Source: a virus
Taxonomy: Duplodnaviria; Heunggongvirae; Uroviricota; Caudoviricetes
DNA: 10,082 bases
IMG/VR virus record: IMGVR_UViG_2917855067_000003
Span: 1 to 10,082 of that record
Reading direction: 5' to 3' (one strand)
The position numbers and the translations under genes were made by a program. Below the pieces are notes generated by a model. The model did not search any database. It saw nothing but the letters and a program-made list of their open reading frames with translations, and was not told where the DNA came from. Positions 1 to 10,082 of the stretch are shown here, piece after piece. Position 1 is the first letter of the stretch, and each line of letters opens with the position of its first letter.

Positions 1-1095
1 TTATGTTGCTACGGGTTCGTCGCATTTCGGTAGCCAGTCGCCGTAGCTTTCCTCTTTCAGCGACAGATTGGTTTGTATCCCCTGCTTAGTGTGCCGCTTC
101 TCATAATTCAGGCCGTACTCTTTCAGCATCATGGGCAGCCCCAGCCCGAACATTTTCAGGCTGAGTACGTTCCTGTACCCGTTAGCCTCCATATAGGCCA
201 GATACGCGTGATAGAGATATTTACGATAATTACGCGGGATGATGCTGGCATTCCCCATAAACATCCCGTTGGTCTGCGGGAGCATTTCCAGATAGCCGCA
301 AAAATCAAACGTAGGGTCAGCATCGCGCTTGATGCTGAGCGCCTCGTCGGAATTCTGCTGTGACTGGAGCAGTGCGCGGGCTGCCATCGGGTCGCTGAAC
401 TTCTGCATGAGCTGGCGCACAATCACGGCCAGCTCGCGCGCAATTTTATCCCTGAGCTGCGGGTCGCGTTCCTCCGGCGCAATTTGCTCCGGGAAGTGAA
501 TAATCACCCGGCGACGTGACACACCACCGCTGCGGTCGGTGAAGCGCATGGGGTTATTGTTCACTGCCAGAATCACCGCCGGAATGTGTGTTGAGTACGG
601 GTTCTGGTATTTCGGGTCAACCGAGACCGCATCGCCGCCGGTGATGGCCTTAAGCCCTGCGCCGTCACCGCTCCATTTTTCCTGGTCAGGCAGACGGATA
701 AGCGAGAAGCCAATCAGGGAGGCACGCTTGCGCGGGTCTTCCAGCGTGTCGATGTCGGCTGACGTGGCGTTATCTTCCCCGGCAAGCAATGTCGCGATTT
801 CAGCCAGAATACTTTTGCCACTCCCGCCGGGACCGGTCACTTCGAGAAAGAGCTGCCAGTCGTAACGGTTCGCCAGCACCATAAACAGCGCGGCCAGAAT
901 CACGTCGCGTTTTTGTGGATTTTTACCGGCTGCACGGTCGAGCCAGCGCCAGAAGTTCGGCGCGTGCGTCCCCAGCCGTTTCCCCTTCCACCGGCGGGGT
1001 AAAATCCACATCGCACAGCGTGCGCAGCCAGTGCGATTTGTGGTGCGGGCTGAATACGCCGCTTTGGGTATCGAGTACCCCGTTGCGAAAGCCAA
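1..1095 (-). CDS. alpha: P4 alpha-type primase/helicase, C-terminal segment (SF3/D5-like helicase and origin-binding part); homologous part is about 4..975, stop codon at 1..3
   Basis: ORF-track translation contains Walker A GPGGSGKS and the long C-terminal region typical of P4 alpha. It lies in a different frame from 923..2335 and overlaps it. The ATG at 1095 is an ORF-caller start, not necessarily a biological one. Confidence 0.8.
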   Translation of the reverse strand: MAFATGYSIPKAAYSARTTNRTGCARCAMWILPRRWKGKRLGTHAPNFWRWLDRAAGKNPQKRDVILAALFMVLANRYDWQLFLEVTGPGGSGKSILAEIATLLAGEDNATSADIDTLEDPRKRASLIGFSLIRLPDQEKWSGDGAGLKAITGGDAVSVDPKYQNPYSTHIPAVILAVNNNPMRFTDRSGGVSRRRVIIHFPEQIAPEERDPQLRDKIARELAVIVRQLMQKFSDPMAARALLQSQQNSDEALSIKRDADPTFDFCGYLEMLPQTNGMFMGNASIIPRNYRKYLYHAYLAYMEANGYRNVLSLKMFGLGLPMMLKEYGLNYEKRHTKQGIQTNLSLKEESYGDWLPKCDEPVAT

Positions 1096-2335
1096 TCAGA
1101 CGGCGCGCCGGTGTATCCTGCTGCGGAATAATCAGTTTCAGGGTCTCCACAACTGAGGCGATTTTCCCCGACGAGAACGGGGCGCGCAGACGCTGGAATA
1201 AGTCAGCCACATTCCGTGAAAAAGTGGCGACAGGGATATTTTTCCAGATGCCGTTTTCATAGCGGGACAGGAGCTGGCCGTTCGCATCCACTGCCAGCGC
1301 TTCGCCGTAATGCTCATGCACCCGCAAAGCCTTGTCGCTGGCGCTCATGGCGGTAAATTCCGCCTCGCTCATGGTATCAAACGGACTTTGCGCCGGTGGC
1401 CGGATGGCGTCATAAATCGCTTTGCGTGTGGCTTCCTCGCCGTACTGTATAAACGCATCATTCCAGTCACCGAATACCGGCGGCAGGGCAACAACGCCCT
1501 CACAGGCGTCTGCGGCCGCAGCGGCTTTACTCTGGCCGTCGCCGTTAAGGTCACGGTCGGCAGCGAGCACAATCTGACAGGCCGGGGACTTCTGACGGGC
1601 AAGGCTCGCCAGAGAAAGGAGGTTCACGGAGGACAGTGCTACCATGACGGTTTCCCCGGTCAGGTGATGCACGGTGAGTGCAGTCGCATACCCCTCTGCA
1701 ATCCACAGGCGTTTTCCGGCCTGTTTTTTCCCTTCGATGGTATGGCATGCTCCTTTTACCGCCCCGCCTTTCAGGGTGCGTTTGAGACCGTCAGAATTGA
1801 TAAGCTGAAGGTTAACCAGTGCGCCGGTATCGTCATACAGCGGGACAACCACATCACCGGCGCGGAACGTCACGCCGCCGGTTTTGTGTGTGGCCGACAG
1901 TACCGGACATTCCCGGTCGGGGAAACCCTTTCGGGTCAGGTAGGCGTTGCCGCTGGCCGGTCGGGTTTTCTCCATGAGCCTGACGGCCAGTGCGGCCGCC
2001 GCTTTGCGGTCAGCCTCCGTTTCAGCCTCTGCGGCCGCAATCACTTCCGGGGCAACCGGCGGCAGATTGCCGGTCACGGCGTTCACCTTCCCGGCGGCCT
2101 CTGAGGGAGTCACGCCAAACACTTTTTCTACCAGCTTAAGCCCGTCACCCGCGCCGCATTGATTGCAGAACCACGTCCCGCGCCCTTCTTTATCGTCAAA
2201 GCGGAAACGGTCAGAGCCGCCGCATACCGGGCAGGACTGATGGCGGTTTTTAATTACTTTCACACCCAGCGCAGGGAGAATGCGCGGCCAGTGGCCGCAC
2301 GCCTGTTTTACCGTTTCTGTTACGTTCATTTTCAT
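923..2335 (-). CDS. alpha: P4 alpha-type primase/helicase, N-terminal segment (zinc ribbon and primase domain); ends prematurely at 923 unless a frameshift is corrected
   Basis: Translation from MKMNVTETVKQ contains the zinc-ribbon motif CPVCGGSDRFRFDDKEGRGTWFCNQCG. The ATG at 2335..2333 is preferred over 2386 because AGGGAGA lies 9 nt upstream. The frame stops at 923 while the homology continues in another frame. Confidence 0.8.
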   Translation of the reverse strand: MKMNVTETVKQACGHWPRILPALGVKVIKNRHQSCPVCGGSDRFRFDDKEGRGTWFCNQCGAGDGLKLVEKVFGVTPSEAAGKVNAVTGNLPPVAPEVIAAAEAETEADRKAAAALAVRLMEKTRPASGNAYLTRKGFPDRECPVLSATHKTGGVTFRAGDVVVPLYDDTGALVNLQLINSDGLKRTLKGGAVKGACHTIEGKKQAGKRLWIAEGYATALTVHHLTGETVMVALSSVNLLSLASLARQKSPACQIVLAADRDLNGDGQSKAAAAADACEGVVALPPVFGDWNDAFIQYGEEATRKAIYDAIRPPAQSPFDTMSEAEFTAMSASDKALRVHEHYGEALAVDANGQLLSRYENGIWKNIPVATFSRNVADLFQRLRAPFSSGKIASVVETLKLIIPQQDTPARRLIGFRNGVLDTQSGVFSPHHKSHWLRTLCDVDFTPPVEGETAGDARAELLALARPCSR

Positions 2336-2349
2336 CGTTGTTTTCTCCC

Positions 2350-2670
2350 TCAGTGCAGTACCGGTGCGGTGATATGACGGGCGCAAAGCTCATCCATCAC
2401 GGCCAGCCCGAGAAAGGACAGCGACGGGGCAGCTTTCAGTGGTCCGACTTCCATTAAATCTTCCAGCAGGGCACAGGCAATCTGACGGCCTTTTTCCTCG
2501 CCGTGCTGGCGCAGGTAGAAGCCCTCCAGCTCGGCGGCAATGGCGCTTTCCAGCGCGTCGAGGGTGAGGTGCGGGTAGCGGTGCTGGCGTTCGCACAGGG
2601 TCAGCCATGCACAGGCCACTGCGCGACGATACAGCGCGGCGCGTAATACGGGCGGTAATGGCTTTTTCAT
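2350..2670 (-). CDS. hypothetical protein (106 aa), P4-like leftward operon, immediately upstream of alpha
   Basis: ORF with SD GGGGAGGG upstream of the ATG at 2670. Its start overlaps the stop of the preceding ORF (ATGA), and it ends 14 nt before the alpha start. Function not recognised. Confidence 0.6.
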
Positions 2671-2894
2671 ACGTTACCCTCCCCGGTAAGCCACTGCTGA
2701 TTGCAGCGTTCGACCACGCCGTCGAGCTGGGCGGTCATGAGGTAAATCACGGAGGTGAGCTGTAACTGCTGCGTCGGGTCACGACGAACGGTGGCGCAGT
2801 CCTGCACCTGCATCAGGTTGCCGACGAGCTGGCCGACGTTGCGCATATGCTCCAGACATTCGAGGTCACGGGCGGTAATGGTGGTGTGTCTCAT
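2667..2894 (-). CDS. hypothetical protein (75 aa), P4-like leftward operon
   Basis: ORF with SD GGAGGTG upstream. ATGA overlaps at both ends indicate translational coupling. Function not recognised. Confidence 0.55.
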
Positions 2895-3085
2895 GCGCGC
2901 ACCTCCGCAACCGGCAGACGGCCAGCGAACGAGAGGACGTAATCGCGAATGAGGGAAAGGCGTGCGGCGTGCTCATCACCGGCAACGGTGCGGAGCATAC
3001 AAATACGGGGGGTACGGTCTGCGCGACGAACAGCGGCAAACACAAAGACAAACTGCGGGTGTGACGGGGTGAGGGTCGTAGCCAT
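2891..3085 (-). CDS. hypothetical small protein (64 aa), first gene after the putative leader terminator
   Basis: ATG at 3085 is preceded by a near-consensus SD (AGGAGG, about 9 nt spacing). The same frame stays open up to 3442, but that extension crosses a terminator hairpin and lacks an SD, so the short form is preferred. Confidence 0.5.
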
Positions 3086-3288
3086 AAGGGCAACCTCCTG
3101 TGAATAGCGGTTATTGCCACCACCGGAGTTCCTACGCTCATGGGTGGTGACCCGAACGGGGGTAGGAATACCGGCTTCACAGAATACCGGCCAGCCCGAA
3201 AGCTGCCCCGCCCGGACCACCATTATCTGACAGGGGCTATGGAATAAGCACCACAGCCCGAAAAATGGGTGTGCCTGAGCAACGACGT

Positions 3289-3311
3289 AAAAAAAGACGC
3301 ATGGCGCGTCT
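3289..3311 (-). terminator. rho-independent terminator for leftward transcription (P4 timm-like position)
   Basis: On the minus strand: stem AGACGC / GCGTCT (plus 3295-3300 and 3306-3311), 5-nt loop, followed by a run of 7 U (plus-strand A-run at 3289-3295). Confidence 0.5.
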
Positions 3312-3367
3312 GTTGTCGCCTGTGAATTACACGGGTTCCTACGCCCGGCTGCCGATTTTGCGGCAGC
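3289..3367 (-). ncRNA. candidate small structured RNA (position analogous to the P4 CI / C4-type immunity RNA)
   Basis: About 350 nt lacks a convincing coding region between alpA/vis and the next SD-bearing ORF. The minus-strand transcript would start with a 7-bp hairpin (plus 3348-3354 / 3361-3367), contain further imperfect stems, and end at the terminator. A possible -10 (TATAGT, plus 3374-3379) lies just upstream. No homology check was possible. Confidence 0.25.
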
Positions 3368-3438
3368 GGGAAAACTATACCTGGAAACGGCGAAAAGAAG
3401 CAAGCCAGAAAAAGGGGCTGTTTGCTGAACGGTCATCA

Positions 3439-3705
3439 TCATGCGTCATAGCCCCGGTTACGTTCGGCAATGCGATCCGCCATCCATGCAGTGATTTCAG
3501 ACTGCGCCCACGCCACATTTTTTCCGCCGAGGGAGATTTGTTTCGGGAAGGCTTCCCGGCTGATGAGGTCGTAAATGGTCGAGCGGGACAGGCCGCACAG
3601 ATGCATCACTTCGGGCAGACGGATAAAGCGCTCGTGAACGGTATCAGAAACCGGCATCAGCGGCGCGGCAGGGGCAGAAGACGGGGAAGAAAAAGCAGTG
3701 TGCAT
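3439..3705 (-). CDS. alpA: AlpA/Vis-family helix-turn-helix regulator (88 aa), matching the size of P4 Vis
   Basis: Translation contains the AlpA-family signature ([47 protein letters not shown]). SD GAGG lies upstream of the ATG at 3705. Confidence 0.85.
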
Positions 3706-3766
3706 CGGGCTACCTCACAAAGTCCATACAGTGCCGGTCGTGTCCGTCCGGCTTCGGGTAGCTCCT

Positions 3767-3795
3767 TATTATGTCTATATTTTTCCTCAGGTCAT
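3767..3795 (-). promoter_or_regulatory. candidate sigma70-type promoter for the leftward alpA/vis operon
   Basis: Minus strand reads ATGACC, a 16-17 nt spacer, then CATAAT/ATAATA, about 55-60 nt upstream of the alpA ATG. The -35 is weak. Confidence 0.25.
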
Positions 3796-3834
3796 GTGAG
3801 ATTTTCGGGGAAACAAACATTGACTTTTCGCTCT

Positions 3835-3871
3835 GGCAAACAAAGGCAAACGCTGGCAAACATATGCAAAT
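3835..3871. promoter_or_regulatory. four direct repeats at exact 10-bp phasing (GGCAAAC x3 and TGCAAAT); candidate regulator binding array
   Basis: GGCAAAC at 3835-3841, 3845-3851 and 3855-3861; TGCAAAT at 3865-3871. They sit in the divergent control region between alpA/vis and sid. Confidence 0.4.
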
Positions 3872-3873
3872 CA

Positions 3874-3889
3874 CTGCATTACAATGCAG
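3874..3889. promoter_or_regulatory. perfect palindrome CTGCATT-AC-AATGCAG; candidate operator
   Basis: 7-bp inverted arms with a 2-bp spacer, directly after the phased repeats and before an AT-rich stretch. Confidence 0.4.
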
Positions 3890-3971
3890 CAATTTCTATT
3901 TCTTTTAGTTATATATTTTTCATTTTTAATCAAAATAAAGTCTAAATGCTATAACCAGAGCAAAACAGGAG

Positions 3972-4105
3972 GGTGAACAGTGGTGAACAGACGGTGAACA
4001 GTCAGACCCTCAACTATTCACCCTTTAACTTACTGTATTAATTATCTTTTTATTTAAGGTGAACAGTGGTGAATAGTTATAAGTAAAAAAATAAACGGTG
4101 AGTAA
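3972..4105. repeat. iteron array GGTGAACA(G), the reverse complement of the P4 type I iteron TGTTCACC; ori/crr-like alpha binding region
   Basis: GGTGAACAG at 3972-3980, 3982-3990, 3993-4001 and 4058-4066; GGTGAATAG at 4068-4076; inverted copy CTATTCACC at 4013-4021; degenerate GGTGAGTAA at 4097-4105. Spacing is 10-11 bp within clusters, and an AT-rich stretch (about 3890-3960) lies alongside. Confidence 0.7.
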
Positions 4106-4152
4106 GGTTTTCCTGCGACCTTTCTCTGGCCAGCCGGTTTTTAAGGTCTGTT

Positions 4153-4170
4153 TGTGCCAGCATTCTGACA
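4153..4170 (+). promoter_or_regulatory. Ogr/Delta box (TGT-N12-ACA) of a Psid-like late promoter
   Basis: TGT at 4153-4155 and ACA at 4168-4170 are separated by 12 nt. The dyad centre is about 80 nt upstream of the sid ATG, consistent with a -55 activator site and a short leader. A weak -10-like CAGAAT lies near 4205-4210. Confidence 0.45.
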
Positions 4171-4242
4171 ACGGCAATGAATCGTGTTGTTGTGCAGGAG
4201 GCGTCAGAATCATTTCAGGTTGAACACACGGAGAACCTGAAC

Positions 4243-4986
4243 ATGAAACCCGAACTCATTATCAAAGCCATGCAGACCGTTATCAGTAAACAGGATGAAG
4301 GCGCGGAACAACGCATTGCCGGTGCGCTGGCCGCACTTAACGAAGCAAAAGATGCACACACGGCCAGCATGGGTAAACTCAGCGACATTGAGGCTTCCAT
4401 TCAGCGTTGTGAGCAGGAACGACAGACCGCCCTCAGTGAAAGTGCACAGGCCGAACAGGACTGGCGCAGCCGCCTTCGAACTCTGCGCGGCAACCTCACT
4501 CCTGAACTGAAAGCTGAACACAGTAAACGTATCGCCAGCCGCGAACTGGCTGATGAGTTCACCGGTCTGATTACCGAGCTGGAGAAAGACAAAAGTCTCG
4601 CCATGCTTGGCGCATGCTCCTCCGGTACGGCTTATATCAGCGCCCATGAAAAAGCATTCACCACTTACGCCAACAGCGAATGGAAGAAGGTGCTGGCCGG
4701 TATCAGCCCCGCACTGTTACGTGCCTTCCTGTTGCGTATACGGTCGCTGGAAATGAGCGGAGAAACCTCATCGCGTGCGACCGCGACACGTGAGCTGGGT
4801 GATGCCCTGAATCTGCAGTCAGCCCTGTATCATTTTGATATGGAGCAGGAGCCGGTCCTGTCCGTAACGGGCATGAATCGCCCGGTCATAACCGGGGTTG
4901 ATATGGCGCTGTTAAGAAGCCCGGCCAGACGGATGAAGCTTGCCGCTGAACTGGCTGCAAAATCCCACGAACAGGCAGAGGGCTGA
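4243..4986 (+). CDS. sid: Sid-like capsid size determination (external scaffold) protein, 247 aa
   Basis: Assigned by position as first gene of the sid-delta-psu operon, by its charged, helix-rich composition, and by a length near P4 Sid (about 244 aa as I recall). Start at 4243 has SD GGAG 9 nt upstream; the ORF-track start at 4177 would lie inside the promoter. Confidence 0.6.
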   Translation: MKPELIIKAMQTVISKQDEGAEQRIAGALAALNEAKDAHTASMGKLSDIEASIQRCEQERQTALSESAQAEQDWRSRLRTLRGNLTPELKAEHSKRIASRELADEFTGLITELEKDKSLAMLGACSSGTAYISAHEKAFTTYANSEWKKVLAGISPALLRAFLLRIRSLEMSGETSSRATATRELGDALNLQSALYHFDMEQEPVLSVTGMNRPVITGVDMALLRSPARRMKLAAELAAKSHEQAEG

Positions 4987-4989
4987 ATT

Positions 4990-5229
4990 ATGTTTCACTG
5001 TCCGTTCTGCAAAAAGACCGCGCACGTCCGTACCAGCCGTTATCTGTCGGAAAACGTCAAACAGCGTTATCACCAGTGTACCAATATCGAATGTTCGGCC
5101 ACTTTCCGCACCATCGAGTCGGTTGACGGTGTGATACGTGCCGCACCGGAGAAACCTGACCCCACCCCGGTGACGCCGCTGCCGCCGCGTAAAGAACAGG
5201 GCTGCTACAGCTCGCCGTTCCGGCATTAA
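4990..5229 (+). CDS. delta: Ogr/Delta-family zinc-finger late-gene transcription activator (single-domain, 79 aa)
   Basis: Translation MFHCPFCKKTAHVRTSRY...YHQCTNIECSATF has the Ogr/Delta Cys4 arrangement (C4, C7, C30, C35). It starts 4 nt after the sid stop, with SD GAGGG upstream. Confidence 0.85.
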   Translation: MFHCPFCKKTAHVRTSRYLSENVKQRYHQCTNIECSATFRTIESVDGVIRAAPEKPDPTPVTPLPPRKEQGCYSSPFRH

Positions 5230-5244
5230 TCAGGAGAGAGACAC

Positions 5245-5811
5245 GTGACCACTATGACAATACAGCAGGCCTTTGAGGCCTGTCAGGCAAACAAAAACAC
5301 CTGGCTGACACGTAAAGCCGAACTGGCTGACCTTGAACTTGAATACCGTGAACAGCTCCTTGCTGGTGACGAACAAATCCCGCGCAAAATGCAGGATTTG
5401 CGCGACAATATCGACGTGAAAAAATGGGAGATTAATCAGGCCGCCGGTCGCTATATCCGCTCACATGAGGAGGTGCAGCACATCAGCATCCGCAACCGGC
5501 TCTATGACTTTATGCAGCAGCACGGCGCGGAGCTGGCCGCCACGCTGGCGCCTGAATTGATGGGGTATAATGAACAGCTTCCCGTAGTAAAACAGAGCGC
5601 CATGCAGCATTCGGTTGATTATCTGCGTGAAGCCCTGTCAGTGTGGCTGGCCGCAGGTGACAAAATTAATTATTCCGCGCAGGACAGCGACATTTTAACG
5701 GCCATCGGATTCAGGCCTGATGCGGCTTCGCGGGATGATAATCGAGAGAAATTCACCCCGGCACAGAACCTGATTTACACCCGCCGACGTGCAGAACTGG
5801 TCGCACGGTAG
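5245..5811 (+). CDS. psu: Psu (polarity suppression protein; Rho inhibitor / capsid decoration), 188 aa
   Basis: Translation (..IQQAFEACQANKNTWL.., ..NQAAGRYIRSHEEVQHISIRNRL.., ..KINYSAQDSDILTAIGFRPDA..) closely resembles P4 Psu as I recall it. A GTG start at 5245 sits 8 nt after SD GGAGAGAG; the alternative ATG at 5254 is too far from the SD. Confidence 0.9.
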   Translation: MTTMTIQQAFEACQANKNTWLTRKAELADLELEYREQLLAGDEQIPRKMQDLRDNIDVKKWEINQAAGRYIRSHEEVQHISIRNRLYDFMQQHGAELAATLAPELMGYNEQLPVVKQSAMQHSVDYLREALSVWLAAGDKINYSAQDSDILTAIGFRPDAASRDDNREKFTPAQNLIYTRRRAELVAR

Positions 5812-5857
5812 CACGCGAAAAAATCCCCGAAAATTCCGCTATTTTTCCTGAAAAAAG

Positions 5858-5884
5858 CCATGCATCCATAAGGTGCATGGTTTT
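5858..5884 (+). terminator. candidate rho-independent terminator of the sid-delta-psu operon
   Basis: Stem CCATGCATCC / GGTGCATGG (one wobble, 4-nt loop) followed by TTTT at 5881-5884, about 47 nt after the psu stop. Confidence 0.45.
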
Positions 5885-5984
5885 GCATGCAAATCCCCGT
5901 ATTTTATTTCCCCCACCACGCCAGTACCGGCGCGGCCTGAGCCGGTTCATGCACCTGCATTAAAAGTGACCTCTTAAGCGGGCA

Positions 5985-6003
5985 GGCGTGGCGGGGAGAG
6001 CAT
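5985..6003. other. cos-like site (resembles the 19-nt P2/P4 cohesive end)
   Basis: GGCGTGGCGGGGAGAGCAT matches GGCGAGGCGGGGAAAGCAC at 16 of 19 positions. That P2/P4 sequence is recalled from memory and not verified. The site is downstream of psu, where P4 has cos. Confidence 0.4.
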
Positions 6004-6269
6004 TGCGCGCTGGAATAATAATTAATTATTTATTTTCTCGCTCTGTGTTTGTCATTGATGAGTGGCAATTCGTTGACATGCTGGAGAGATATAATGCTGT
6101 TTAAAAGGAAAGAAGCACTTCTGAGGCTTTTAGGTTAGAGGGGAAGTTAAGGCCGCCTTGAGGCGGCGAAAATTAGTCATTTTGGGTATCGAGGAGTAAT
6201 ATTAGGCTGAATGCCACATGCTCCTGAATTAGAACCTTGAGTGCGAGTTGCTACATAAATAAATGGAGC

Positions 6270-6950
6270 TTAAAAATGATTAATCAAGATTTGATTTTTT
6301 TTAATTGCTCGTCTACTCCAGTGCTCTGTGATGTTTTGAGTGAAGTCGGGACGAACTATTTTTGCTCTAAAGTCCACTGCTTCAAGAGATTCTACTCTCA
6401 AATATATTCCTTCTGATATTTCATCGCTGAATTTTGATTTTTTTATATAAGAAGATAACTTGTTTAGTTCAAAGAAACCTTCGTCAAGAAAAGGAACGCA
6501 ATGAAGGTTTGCATTTGATATTATTTCGTTTCTTTGAGGAAGTGGTAAAAATATTTTTCTTTTCTTATCGAATACATCAAATGCTAAAAAATAGTCAGGT
6601 AAGCGGGTGTAGTGAATAGAATGTTTCGCATAACACCATTCCCCAAATATAATGTATTGGTCTCGAATGTAGTCAAAAAGGTTGTCGCGGTTGTAATTTA
6701 ACCAGTCAGGAAGCATTTTCCATTGGCCATTAAAAGGTTGATGTAAAAAAGAACCCCTATTTTGAAGGAGTAAGTCTGCATTACCATTAAAGGAAATGCC
6801 TAGATTAGCTCCGTCAATTTTCTCTTCTATTATGGTTTTTTTAGTTGAAAGCAATAATCGTTCTTTATCTGAAATGACCTTGTCATCCCTGACGTTAGGA
6901 TGGTAAAAAATATGTGGAGTGGACGGGAATTTATATAGTTCATCTTCCAT
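6270..6950 (-). CDS. Rnl2-type RNA-ligase-like nucleotidyltransferase (standalone adenylyltransferase domain, about 226 aa)
   Basis: Translation carries ligase motifs in the right order and spacing: motif I EEKIDGAN (KxDG), motif III FGEW, motif IIIa FDVFD, motif IV EGIYLR, motif V RAKIVR. ATG at 6950 has SD AGGAAG 9 nt upstream; the ORF-track GTG at 6977 has no SD. It is AT-rich and overlaps the upstream gene by 11 nt. Confidence 0.7.
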   Translation of the reverse strand: MEDELYKFPSTPHIFYHPNVRDDKVISDKERLLLSTKKTIIEEKIDGANLGISFNGNADLLLQNRGSFLHQPFNGQWKMLPDWLNYNRDNLFDYIRDQYIIFGEWCYAKHSIHYTRLPDYFLAFDVFDKKRKIFLPLPQRNEIISNANLHCVPFLDEGFFELNKLSSYIKKSKFSDEISEGIYLRVESLEAVDFRAKIVRPDFTQNITEHWSRRAIKKNQILINHF

Positions 6951-7479
6951 TTGGAAACTTCCTATTATATGTATCACTTATGAGTTTTTCGTCAGCAAAA
7001 TGAACCGTTATGCCTACATCAGCAAGAGATTCTTTCCAGCCCCACCATTTACTATCAGTTGCTTGAAAAATAGGCGGTTTGTCTACGTGTGCGTATGACG
7101 TGGCTACAAATTTTCTATCCGATAAATCAAAGTTTGTCAGGCCTTCATGTACAGGGAACTCCTCATAGCTAGTTTCGGTTTTTGTAATTCTTACGATGTT
7201 TTTATCAGGGAATTTCCATTGGTTAGTGTAAATCCATTTCATAAATTTATCACCAACGCCAGGGGCTCCACTCATGCTTAAATTTGAGCGATACTCTTCA
7301 ACTATTTCTTGTGCTTCATCAATAACTAACCCACCATTTGCAATTGCCTTTTCTATTATTTCAACACACTCTAAAACACAGCTTAGAATATCATCTGGAA
7401 TGTTTTTTATATCTGTGTGCATATTAGCTGTAACAGCAACATTTGTATCAATTAAAAAAGCAGCAGGTAATTTATTCAT
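6940..7479 (-). CDS. PIN-like domain protein (putative nuclease), 179 aa
   Basis: N-terminal AAFLIDTNVAV resembles the first PIN strand with its conserved Asp; further acidic positions (DEAQE, ATDSKW, ISDTY) fit the PIN pattern. SD GAAGG upstream; start overlaps the ATPase stop (ATGA). The domain call is by eye. Confidence 0.6.
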   Translation of the reverse strand: MNKLPAAFLIDTNVAVTANMHTDIKNIPDDILSCVLECVEIIEKAIANGGLVIDEAQEIVEEYRSNLSMSGAPGVGDKFMKWIYTNQWKFPDKNIVRITKTETSYEEFPVHEGLTNFDLSDRKFVATSYAHVDKPPIFQATDSKWWGWKESLADVGITVHFADEKLISDTYNRKFPNGR

Positions 7480-8861
7480 TTAGATGTACCTTCTTTTTCT
7501 TTTATTCTTCTTTTTAACGCTGATTTTGCTTGCTCTGTAATGTCTGTTAATTCATCACCAAAGAAATTATCTGGCCAGTTGAGGATATTTCCAAATGTAT
7601 CGATTTGCAACGGTGTTAATTTTGGGGTTGAAGATGAAATGTCAGAGAAGTACGCGGAAACTTCCTCGGATTTTATTTTGTCTTCTGCTATTCTCCTTTG
7701 CAGTCTGCGAAGGAAATGCTCTGAGTGAGTTTCTATAATTAGCTGTATGCCTCTTGATTTTCCATTTTCTCGTGAACGGATAACATCGATCATAACATCA
7801 GCAAGCACTGATTGTGCTTTTGGGTGTAAATGAATTTCGGGTTGTTCCATCAAAATTATTGAGCCTGGTTGAGCGTAAAAGCATTGTACTAGAACTGGAA
7901 GAACCTGAGAAACCCCAAACCCAACATCTGGAAGGTCTACCCACTGTTTAGAGCCTTTAGTTTTAACTTTGACTTCATATTCTTGACGATGTTCTGAAAT
8001 TGCTTTTACAGAAAAACTATCAATTAAGTCCATTTGTTTTAATTTTTCAGCGATGATTTCTTCTAATGGTTTATTTTTCTTTTTATAATCAAGGCCGATT
8101 CTTCTTTCTTTTGATGAAAGAATGGCGGAAATTGCATTTTCACCTGCATAACCTACGCTTTCTGGTGAAATTCCAGTCCATGGATATAATCGTTCAGGCT
8201 TATTTCTCATTGGCCCTAAGTAACATACTGAACGGAATAGCTTTTCATGCATTAGATTGATGTCTTGCACAAAATCAGCATTTTGATGGTAAGCTACGAC
8301 TTCCTCAGGGAAACCATAAAATCTAACTACATCTTTTATCGCCCAAACCCTACCCTTCTGTCGAGTTAGAGTGAAATTGTTAGTTTTGATTTTATAATTT
8401 GACTTAGCGTCACGAACAAGTCCTATAGATACATCATCTTTTTCTTTCTGATAGAATGTATATGAGAATCCATTGACATATAAGCTATTATTCTCAGCAT
8501 TAAAAGATATCTCAGATTTAAAATGGCATATTTTCGATAAGGATATAATGCTGTCTAATGATGATTTAGAGTATAATTCATCTATTGACCAAGAGTACTC
8601 AAATGAGATGTTCTTGTTAACGTCTCTCATGTTAACCATGTCTTGAAATGAGCCCAATTGTACTGCTGAGTTTTTACCTCCTGGGTAGAATGGGGTTTTT
8701 CTATCAGATGATTCAACCGTTTGTTTAAGCATCATGAGAAGCTGGCCAATACTAGATTTACCAGAGCTATTTGTTCCAAAGAAAAGAGTGATAGGTGACA
8801 TTTTGATTTCACCTGTATCAGTCCAAACCTTAAAATTTTCTACTTTTAATGTTTTAAACAT
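7476..8861 (-). CDS. ABC-type ATPase (AAA_15/AAA_21, OLD/RecF-like), 461 aa
   Basis: Walker A GTNSSGKSS near the N-terminus, Walker B region ILMEQPEIHLHP and H-loop ETHSEHF near the C-terminus, with a long insertion between, as in defence-associated ABC ATPases. SD AAGGA upstream; ATG is only 3 nt after the int stop. Confidence 0.85.
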   Translation of the reverse strand: MFKTLKVENFKVWTDTGEIKMSPITLFFGTNSSGKSSIGQLLMMLKQTVESSDRKTPFYPGGKNSAVQLGSFQDMVNMRDVNKNISFEYSWSIDELYSKSSLDSIISLSKICHFKSEISFNAENNSLYVNGFSYTFYQKEKDDVSIGLVRDAKSNYKIKTNNFTLTRQKGRVWAIKDVVRFYGFPEEVVAYHQNADFVQDINLMHEKLFRSVCYLGPMRNKPERLYPWTGISPESVGYAGENAISAILSSKERRIGLDYKKKNKPLEEIIAEKLKQMDLIDSFSVKAISEHRQEYEVKVKTKGSKQWVDLPDVGFGVSQVLPVLVQCFYAQPGSIILMEQPEIHLHPKAQSVLADVMIDVIRSRENGKSRGIQLIIETHSEHFLRRLQRRIAEDKIKSEEVSAYFSDISSSTPKLTPLQIDTFGNILNWPDNFFGDELTDITEQAKSALKRRIKEKEGTSK

Positions 8862-8864
8862 TTC

Positions 8865-10082
8865 TTATCCTTTGCTTTTAGATTTTATGATGGAAGCATT
8901 TTGGATTTCATCACCCCACCAAGCTAATAAATCACTACGTTGTTTTAAATAATTTGCACGGTTATATGCTCTTCTGACTTCATTTTTATCTGTATGTGCC
9001 AAAGATGATTCAATTATATCAGCGTTGAAACCAGCTTCATTCATAGTTGTACTCGCGATAGAACGTAATCCATGTGCGACTAATTTACCACCATAACCTA
9101 TTCGCTTCAAAGCGGCATTAGCCGTCTGGCTATTCATAGGTTGCTGTGGATCATTTCTACTTGGAAAAATATATTCTCTATGTGCACTGATTGGCCTCAT
9201 TACTTCCAGAATCTCTAATGCTTGAGTAGAAAGAGGTACGATGTGTTCCCGTTTTGCCTTCATCCGTTCGGCTGGGATCGTCCAGAGTTTGGCATTGAGA
9301 TCGATCTCTGCCCATCGTGTACCTGAAGCCTCAGAAGGTCGCACGAGAGTCAGAAGCTGCCATTCAATAAGACAGCGAGTCGAAACAGACAGATTCGACA
9401 TCACCAAAGAGCGCATTAGCTTCGGCAATTCTTCCGGCCGAAGGGTCGGCATGTTTTGCTTTTTTGGTTTCTCAAATGCCATTCCGACACCTGATGCCGG
9501 GTTTGCATCAATCAGGCCAGTGTTGACGGCGTAGATCATGATTTCGTTAATACGTTGTACCAGGCGGCGAACCGTCTCTAATGCGCCACGTGCTTTGATT
9601 GGCTCCAATGCTTCAACTATCGTTCTGGCCTTAATTTCCTGAACAGGTATTGCGCCTATTGCGGGGAACACGTCCTTATCTAAAGAGCGCCATATATCTT
9701 TCGCGTAGTCTTCAGTGACGCTTTTGCTCTTCATTTTGAACCAGTTGGCGGCCACAGTTGAGAAAATGCTATCCAGCTCAATCTGACGCTGTTCTGATGC
9801 CTGCTCTTGTTGCTGTTGCGGATCCATACCCTGCGCGAGTGTGGTTAAGTGCTGGTCGCGTATCTGACGAGCTGCTGCGAGAGTAAGGGCAGGGTATGAG
9901 CCGAGACTCAAATTAGTTCGGCTGCCACTGACCGGACGTTGATAGCGGAAGCGCCAGAGTTTTTTACCGGTGGTTTTGACGAGCAAGAACAGGCCGTCAC
10001 CATCATGAAGGGTGAAGTCTTTTTCCCGAGGTTTGGCTTTAAGGATTTCGTTGTTAGTGAGGGGGCGTGTGAGGCGCGCCAT
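8865..10082 (-). CDS. int: P4-type tyrosine integrase (405 aa)
   Basis: N-terminus MARLTRPLTNNEILKAKPREKDFTLHDGDGLFLLVKTTGKKLWRFRYQ is the P4-integrase arm-binding domain; C-terminus has HGLRSIAST and RRAYNRANY (catalytic Tyr). The start codon is the last 3 nt of the window. Confidence 0.95.
   Translation of the reverse strand: MARLTRPLTNNEILKAKPREKDFTLHDGDGLFLLVKTTGKKLWRFRYQRPVSGSRTNLSLGSYPALTLAAARQIRDQHLTTLAQGMDPQQQQEQASEQRQIELDSIFSTVAANWFKMKSKSVTEDYAKDIWRSLDKDVFPAIGAIPVQEIKARTIVEALEPIKARGALETVRRLVQRINEIMIYAVNTGLIDANPASGVGMAFEKPKKQNMPTLRPEELPKLMRSLVMSNLSVSTRCLIEWQLLTLVRPSEASGTRWAEIDLNAKLWTIPAERMKAKREHIVPLSTQALEILEVMRPISAHREYIFPSRNDPQQPMNSQTANAALKRIGYGGKLVAHGLRSIASTTMNEAGFNADIIESSLAHTDKNEVRRAYNRANYLKQRSDLLAWWGDEIQNASIIKSKSKG

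Follow-up and report, generated by a model that had tools for sequence, protein, structure and literature searches.

HEC-03 (Hma-embedded candidate 03) is a two-gene system that pairs an ATP-binding cassette (ABC) ATPase with a VapC-like PIN protein (Payne et al., bioRxiv 10.1101/2024.01.29.577857) and is included in PADLOC-DB v2. The version tested, from Pseudomonas cichorii (Table S2), lowered plaquing by orders of magnitude, for which both genes were required, and its toxicity precluded induction with isopropyl β-D-1-thiogalactopyranoside (IPTG); an RNA ligase is nowhere mentioned (10.1101/2024.01.29.577857). Here, we describe a relative of HEC-03 in which the two genes are followed by a third, predicted to encode an RNA ligase. 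It lies in a 10,082-nt stretch of caudoviricete DNA (IMG/VR record IMGVR_UViG_2917855067_000003, positions 1 to 10,082; hereafter the window) that corresponds to a P4-like satellite. We conclude that the operon is very probably HEC-03-family defense cargo to which the ligase genuinely belongs, and we give a probability of roughly 45% to the full explanation, which joins this three-gene satellite cargo to a mechanism in which RNA would be cut by the PIN protein and resealed by the ligase.

The usual interpretation of defenses that act through RNases (PARIS, Old, PrrC, retron and Septu effectors, type III CRISPR accessories) is abortive infection, and an operon wiring an RNA ligase to an RNase would make recovery from RNA damage, or reversible immunity, directly testable. 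Three described cases bear on such an operon. In Menshen, the DUF3696 tails of the ATPase NsnB are predicted by AlphaFold3 to clamp the PIN-like domain of the effector (PMC12065111). When the metal-dependent nuclease Old makes a single nick in a tRNA, T4 Rnl1 or Rnl2 can close it again with no need for end healing (PMC12445682). According to its summary, a 2016 prediction by Burroughs and Aravind combines a PIN_3 (COG1569) protein, an ATPase, an HNH nuclease and an "ATP-grasp" RNA ligase, with the ligase neutralizing the nucleases (PMC5499597).

A three-gene relative of HEC-03

The three genes, with coordinates from a list of open reading frames (ORFs), are as follows:

7476-8861, minus strand: ATPase gene, 461 aa
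6940-7479, minus strand: PIN gene, 179 aa
6270-6950, minus strand: RNA ligase gene, 226 aa from the ATG at 6950 (enclosing ORF, 6270-6977)

They form the translationally coupled operon that an earlier reading of the sequence alone (the original prediction) had proposed: the ATPase stop and PIN start share an ATGA at 7479-7476, and the PIN gene has 11 nt in common with the ligase gene (ATGGAAGATGA, 6950-6940), both exactly as described. The domain assignments made then (ABC ATPase, PIN, RNA ligase) were also correct, as judged by Pfam, PADLOC and fold searches.

The ATPase, an ABC-type protein with a C-terminal DUF3696 helical tail, is predicted to act as the sensor and regulator. Its Pfam matches are AAA_15 (E 2.3e-29), AAA_21 (1e-19) and DUF3696 (5.6e-8), and its residues 1-456 align with positions 1-456 of the 458 in PADLOC HEC-03 model PDLC04148 (E 1.3e-124); further PADLOC matches are to NsnB of Menshen (1.6e-64) and AriA (1e-29). 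It shares 37% identity with the ATPase of the tested P. cichorii HEC-03. Across 82 homologues, the Walker A motif (FFGxNSSGKSS), a signature-like GFGxSQ, the Walker B motif (MEQPE) and the H-loop (ETHSEH) are kept. The Walker B motif (7836-7862, residues ~334-342) has E-Q in place of the usual D-E in all 82 and in the tested HEC-03, and this invariance suggests that the switch is ATP binding, not fast hydrolysis. As a separate observation, MEQPE can be likened to engineered hydrolysis-deficient E-to-Q ABC ATPases and to the E-N dyad reported for Menshen NsnB.

The PIN protein matches PADLOC HEC-03 model PDLC04147 (E 2e-25) and shares 29% identity (E 5e-20) with the PIN of the tested P. cichorii system. 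A fold search placed it nearest to VapCs that cleave tRNA or rRNA; it has the PIN fold and conserved acidic site of the VapC type, together with a conserved C-terminal SKWWGW segment and no additional domain, and the PINs of the family match PIN_3 weakly. We predict that it is a VapC-like RNase effector. An inactive PIN, as in Menshen, with the ligase as the sole effector was considered and rejected, because the acidic residues are invariant.

The ATPase and the adjacent PIN gene both match their HEC-03 models, and PADLOC would call the locus HEC-03. Its composition is three genes, not two, and because of the third, overlapping ligase gene we file the locus as a three-gene HEC-03-family variant, not as HEC-03 as described. 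PADLOC and the paper use the two names in opposite ways: the PADLOC model called "HEC-03B", with 458 positions, is the ATPase, whereas in the paper HEC-03A is the ATPase and HEC-03B is the PIN protein. The operon had been put forward as a candidate undescribed system, to be refuted by a match to a characterized one; two of its three genes do match such a system, the ATPase and PIN pair being validated HEC-03, and the description stands for the ligase, which belongs to no named system (0 matches among PADLOC models at E ≤ 1).

A minimal RNA ligase

A sequence search of solved structures with the ligase returned only a marginal Rnl3-like match, so a fold search was needed; this showed an adenylyltransferase fold whose nearest counterparts are NgrRnl, Rnl2 and REL1, all of them nick-sealing ligases. 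Nucleotidyltransferase motifs I (KxDG), III, IV and V (K197) are all present, and the catalytic residues K44/D46/G47, E104, E180/G181 and K197 are conserved at 99-100% among 100 sequences. The structural model is a single domain with neither the C-terminal accessory domain of Rnl2 nor the N-terminal one of NgrRnl. Together, motifs and model point to a minimal ATP-dependent Rnl2/Rnl5-like RNA ligase of the PF09414 family that is not a canonical Rnl2 or Rnl5. An RNA ligase this small (226 aa), with relatives in viruses, may be of interest to enzymologists.

An enzyme consisting of the nucleotidyltransferase domain only could conceivably carry out partial reactions, and its main role might then be to adenylylate ends (abortive ligation, blocked 5'-phosphates), as the original prediction had suggested as one option, or to act on DNA or RNA-DNA hybrids. 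The N-domain of Rnl2 on its own is impaired in 5'-adenylylation during nick sealing. The nearest folds, however, are true RNA nick-sealing ligases, all motifs including motif V K197 are kept, and viral relatives that stand alone at the same length point to a self-sufficient enzyme, so we consider this reading very improbable.

Those viral relatives were found by searching IMG/VR with the ligase. Only 2 loci contained the triad (ligases 53% and 43% identical); the other 44 (L093-L136) encode full-length ligases, 24-40% identical, with ATPase and PIN absent, and sit in jumbo-phage-sized and giant-virus (GVMAG) contigs. No triad-clade ligase (≥43% identity) was found outside the operon in this viral scan. 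The stand-alone relatives argue that the ligase family is able to work alone and that the triad ligase is a dedicated clade. A search of their neighborhoods for Pnkp, RNA-repair genes and tRNA clusters gave no functional clue. GenBank labels one relative, from Halogranum tailed virus 1, as "HNH protein", and RefSeq labels it "RNA ligase".

Distribution and ancestry of the ligase gene

A scan of 100,044 species genomes with a PIN alignment gave 248 matches, and the best 80 loci were kept. Among these best 80 of 248, which sample the clade of the window's operon, the ATPase gene lies upstream of the PIN gene in all 80, and the ligase gene lies directly 3' of it in 72 of the 78 assessable loci (92%), two loci being at a contig edge; conservation of the triad across genomes, a check that the original prediction had called for, is thus observed. 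The loci of the scan span many bacterial phyla and the Methanosarcinales, and the triad itself is kept from Enterobacteria through Actinomycetota to Methanosarcinales. It is found in P4-like satellites of Klebsiella and Serratia, in a Lachnospiraceae chromosome and on plasmids of four distant lineages, Azotobacter, Aeromonas, Rhodococcus and Tistrella, where PIN identity is only 37-41%. The Aeromonas plasmid triad adjoins AbiEii, Hok/Gef and GASH genes. Two archaeal loci (Methanolobus and Methanosarcinaceae; L029 and L046) have PINs of ~53% identity, with the ligase present in L029 and absent from L046.

Around the clade of the tested HEC-03 PIN, a metagenome scan found the ligase directly after the PIN gene in 30 of 69 assessable loci (43%), the other 39 being two-gene loci. 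The native locus of the tested P. cichorii PIN has no ligase, and the next gene there is on the opposite strand; at another locus (L152), a PIN 58% identical to the tested one is accompanied by an overlapping ligase gene.

In 95 complete triads, the distance matrices of the three proteins are correlated (ATPase-PIN r 0.93, ATPase-ligase 0.84, PIN-ligase 0.87; Mantel p 0.001), and the median overlap is 4 nt at both gene junctions. By these comparisons, the ligase is an integral third gene that is inherited together with the other two, keeps its catalytic residues and is present in most of the family.

These data bear on whether the ligase acts on PIN products at all. It could instead be a separate, synergistic module that repairs host RNAs damaged by phage or by other resident RNases, or that sustains translation of defense proteins. 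The relatives of ≤40% identity that stand alone in phage and giant-virus contigs would fit such a role, as would the dispensability of the ligase for HEC-03 and the reported 5'-OH ends of VapC products, which would be unsuitable for it (PMC6459853). The overlap, fixed gene order and co-divergence (r 0.84-0.87) across phyla argue for a functional unit, however, as does the confinement of triad-clade ligases to the operon in the viral scan, and we judge a separate module improbable.

Ancestry was examined by parsimony on a midpoint-rooted neighbor-joining tree of 128 ATPases. The ligase was placed at the root, with 7 state changes; shuffling the tips gave 25.6 changes on average. Loci without a ligase fall into a clade of 21 (including the tested HEC-03), a clade of 3 and four singletons, and they keep their PIN active sites intact. 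Because the tree is simple and the sample biased, we infer rather than observe that the ligase is ancestral and that the tested two-gene HEC-03 is a derived loss. Current HEC-03 models thus seem to omit a component of most family members, with the only tested member being a reduced derivative.

Among 161 family members, replacement of D by E at PIN residue 11, the first catalytic aspartate, is confined to ligase-less loci (12 of 49, versus 0 of 111 with the ligase), and the tested P. cichorii HEC-03 PIN is among those with E. This may mark one sub-clade, or an attenuation accompanying ligase loss.

On the Acinetobacter soli plasmid pAS843-2 (L140 4535-5293) and two sister plasmids, the position of the ligase is taken by an HNH_2 gene (PF13391, 5.7e-12). 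The PIN of this locus is 39% identical, the ATPase is split into two ORFs, and an N-6 DNA methylase gene precedes. We considered whether the third gene was a mis-annotated ligase and rejected this, since it is a genuine HNH_2 with no ligase similarity.

An HNH protein in the same slot suggests an effector-type position, and the ligase could accordingly be imagined as a co-effector: the PIN would cut more than once and the ligase would misjoin or circularize the pieces, leaving dead-end RNAs beyond the reach of phage RNA repair. After a double cut by P2 Old, the products formed by T4 Rnl1 and Rnl2 were a circular fragment and an aberrant tRNA of reduced length (PMC12445682), and the catalytic conservation of the ligase and its co-evolution with the PIN would also be expected of a co-effector. 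The two-gene form defends without a ligase, however, a double cut by the PIN would have to be assumed, and repair is the simpler reading of a nuclease-ligase pairing; we regard damage-locking of this kind as unlikely.

A possible cut-and-reseal mechanism

We favor repair as the simplest reading of a nuclease that co-evolves with a nick-sealing ligase. In this mechanism, the DUF3696 tails of an ATPase oligomer would hold the VapC-like RNase in check, after the NsnB-NsnC predictions and the solved complexes of PARIS and Septu (PMC12065111). A phage cue sensed by the ATPase would release or activate the PIN, which would nick structured translation RNAs (tRNA or rRNA) and halt translation. The ligase would rejoin the nicks, buffering a leaky RNase in uninfected cells, allowing recovery after the threat, or both. 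The toxicity of the ligase-less tested HEC-03 upon induction (10.1101/2024.01.29.577857) is in favor of such a role, as are the resealing of Old-nicked tRNA (PMC12445682) and the earlier proposal of a neutralizing ligase in operons with PIN_3, a family that these PINs weakly match. Drawn by analogy, a repair or safeguard function of the ligase is our tentative preference. We hold more doubtfully the wider proposal that the ancestral, commonest form of HEC-03 is a self-contained cut-and-reseal RNA module, with reversible immunity in which cells would arrest and then recover rather than die.

Several observations weigh against repair. The ligase is dispensable: there have been about 7 losses of it or more, the PIN site being kept, and ligase-less HEC-03 defends. 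Since a functional HEC-03 lacks it, the ligase cannot be the primary restraint on the toxin or an essential antitoxin. VapC products in M. tuberculosis are reported to have 5'-OH ends (PMC6459853), and VapC of S. Typhimurium induces the rtc operon (PMC7790460). If the PIN yields 5'-OH ends, a ligase of 3'-OH/5'-P ends could not seal them without a kinase/phosphatase, and no such end-healing enzyme is encoded in the cassette. The accessory domain through which T4 Rnl2 and NgrRnl bind their substrates is also missing from the ligase. Finally, the HNH_2 in third position in A. soli fits a slot for an extra effector better, although the ATPase there is split. The antitoxin-like safeguard first suggested for the ligase is therefore plausible as a buffer, but the repeated loss with an intact PIN site, the defense by ligase-less HEC-03 and the 5'-OH ends of VapC products all count against it.

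The cargo slot of a P4-like satellite

The remaining features of the element are the following:

5245-5811: psu, left of the cos-like sequence
5985-6003, plus strand: cos-like sequence, GGCGTGGCGGGGAGAGCAT, between psu and the cargo; left edge of the slot
~6011-8950: exchanged cargo segment, AT-rich, delimited by blastn comparison with P4-like elements of E. coli that carry different cargo
6011-6269, minus strand: untranslated cassette tail 3' of the ligase stop
8865-10082, minus strand: P4-type integrase gene int, last ~28 codons inside the exchanged segment
3140-3380: P4 immunity RNAs C4 (antisense), isrK and a1b1, from Rfam

The cos-like sequence differs at 3 positions from what we take to be the P2/P4 cos core. 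Of 5,426 complete E. coli genomes, 1,698 contain P4-like elements that match the backbone of the window, and the cassette had zero megablast matches in the same 5,426; it is no common E. coli cargo, and its closest relatives are in Klebsiella and Serratia. The Klebsiella satellite (L001) is ~86% identical to the window at the nucleotide level over backbone and cassette.

Two E. coli P4-like elements at ssrA (L137 and L138) are 94% identical to the window over 1-6010, and blastn identity resumes at 8945/8959, at 84-86%, through 10082. Because homology stops at 6010 and resumes at 8945-8959, the exchanged segment is ~6011-8950. Between psu and int, these relatives carry Drt3a/Drt3b (L137) or an AAA ATPase with a DUF4435 protein (L138). 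Position between psu/cos and int, conserved flanks and variable content together make this a cargo hotspot, as originally proposed. The segment proposed at the time, 6004-8864, captured a real cargo slot; the stretch exchanged extends into the 3' end of int. The G+C counts given with it were exact (16/60 at 8041-8100 and 41/60 at 1501-1560), and over the full extents G+C is 35.2% in the cassette (6011-8950) versus 55.9% in the backbone (1-6010). The last ~28 codons of int are AT-rich and move with the cargo, the right breakpoint being within int (8865-8959).

At the junction, 3 nt separate the int stop from the ATPase ATG, which is preceded by an AAGGA ribosome-binding site, and the gap is also 1-3 nt in the Klebsiella (L001) and Serratia (L005) satellites. 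An ATPase ATG so close behind the int stop in three satellites suggests expression by read-through from int or from a promoter in the int 3' end. A scan of the cassette for promoter and terminator consensus sequences gave counts not exceeding shuffled expectation, Rfam and tRNA scans had no match inside the cassette, and no ORF, Rfam family or convincing terminator was detected in the tail at 6011-6269.

Homology of the ATPase and PIN to the protective HEC-03, together with the hotspot context, makes the defense role that had been proposed very likely. A module not primarily directed against phage would be an addiction or stabilization system of the toxin-antitoxin kind, or an RNA-processing cassette for maintenance of the element. 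The PIN is VapC-like, HEC-03 is toxic upon induction, the cassette occurs on plasmids and satellites, and some copies are chromosomal amid housekeeping genes (L007, L152), all of which would suit such a module. The homologous pair nevertheless lowered plaquing by orders of magnitude, no gene of the labile-antitoxin type is present, and the slot and neighborhoods hold the defense genes Drt3, AbiEii and GASH, which leaves an addiction or maintenance role quite improbable compared with defense.

Two further observations concern the backbone. The region 4240-4989 (sid-like ORF, 4177-4986) is the sole part of the element without nucleotide homology to the Klebsiella satellite, yet P4-like elements of E. 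coli share it at 94%; this capsid-size gene therefore seems to be independently exchanged. The P4 alpha primase-helicase gene (1-2386, minus strand) is split into two frames overlapping at 923-1095, and tblastn with the intact 777-aa Klebsiella protein shifts from frame -2 to -3 near 977-987. The split is a frameshift, from either a pseudogene or a sequencing error.

Comparison with known systems

The closest described system is HEC-03. Both loci have a DUF3696 ABC ATPase gene followed by an overlapping VapC-like PIN gene, and the E-Q Walker B is common to both. The tested system consists of two genes embedded in an Hma system, whereas the cassette of the window has three genes and sits in a satellite; at the first acidic position of the PIN, the tested protein has E and that of the window D.

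Menshen (NsnABC) shares a homologous ATPase, NsnB, with a DUF3696 tail and a degenerate Walker B dyad. Its PIN-like domain, however, is catalytically dead and joined to a C-terminal nuclease, whereas the PIN of the window keeps its active-site residues and stands alone. Menshen has no ligase, and the window has no PADLOC match to NsnA (the ParB/DUF262 sensor) or NsnC. PARIS (AriA/AriB) and P2 Old likewise place a metal-dependent, tRNA-cutting nuclease under the control of an ABC ATPase and are also cargo of P4/P2 hotspots, but their effector is Toprim instead of PIN and neither has a ligase of its own; PADLOC found no AriB (the Toprim/DUF4435 effector) in the window, and AriA matched at only 1e-29. 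VapBC differs in that there is no VapB here, an ABC ATPase being in the partner position, and the PIN is longer (179 aa).

The 2016 PIN_3 prediction, compared by its summary only, is alike in combining a PIN protein, an ATPase and an RNA ligase, and the weak PIN_3 match and the HNH third gene of A. soli recall it; it includes an HNH nuclease that is absent from the triad of the window. The three-gene ATPase/PIN/RNA-ligase form, its prevalence and its ancestry were not found in the accessible literature or in PADLOC models, although comparative-genomics catalogues (Burroughs & Aravind 2016, Krishnan et al. 2020) may already list it. The ATPase and PIN pair is thus the known part, and the ligase is the part that looks new.

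For the ligase, the nearest parallels are in T4. Its nucleotidyltransferase fold and motifs are those of Rnl2/Rnl5, as in T4 Rnl2 and NgrRnl, and the contest between PrrC and T4 Pnkp/Rnl1 follows the same cut-and-reseal logic on tRNA. The window's ligase is without the C-terminal domain of Rnl2 and the N-terminal domain of NgrRnl, and no end-healing enzyme accompanies it. In T4, the phage brings repair against a host nuclease, whereas here nuclease and ligase are in one host-side operon. If the cut-and-reseal reading is true, this would be the first defense system known with its own RNA-repair enzyme, the host side taking the part that Pnkp and Rnl1 play for T4.

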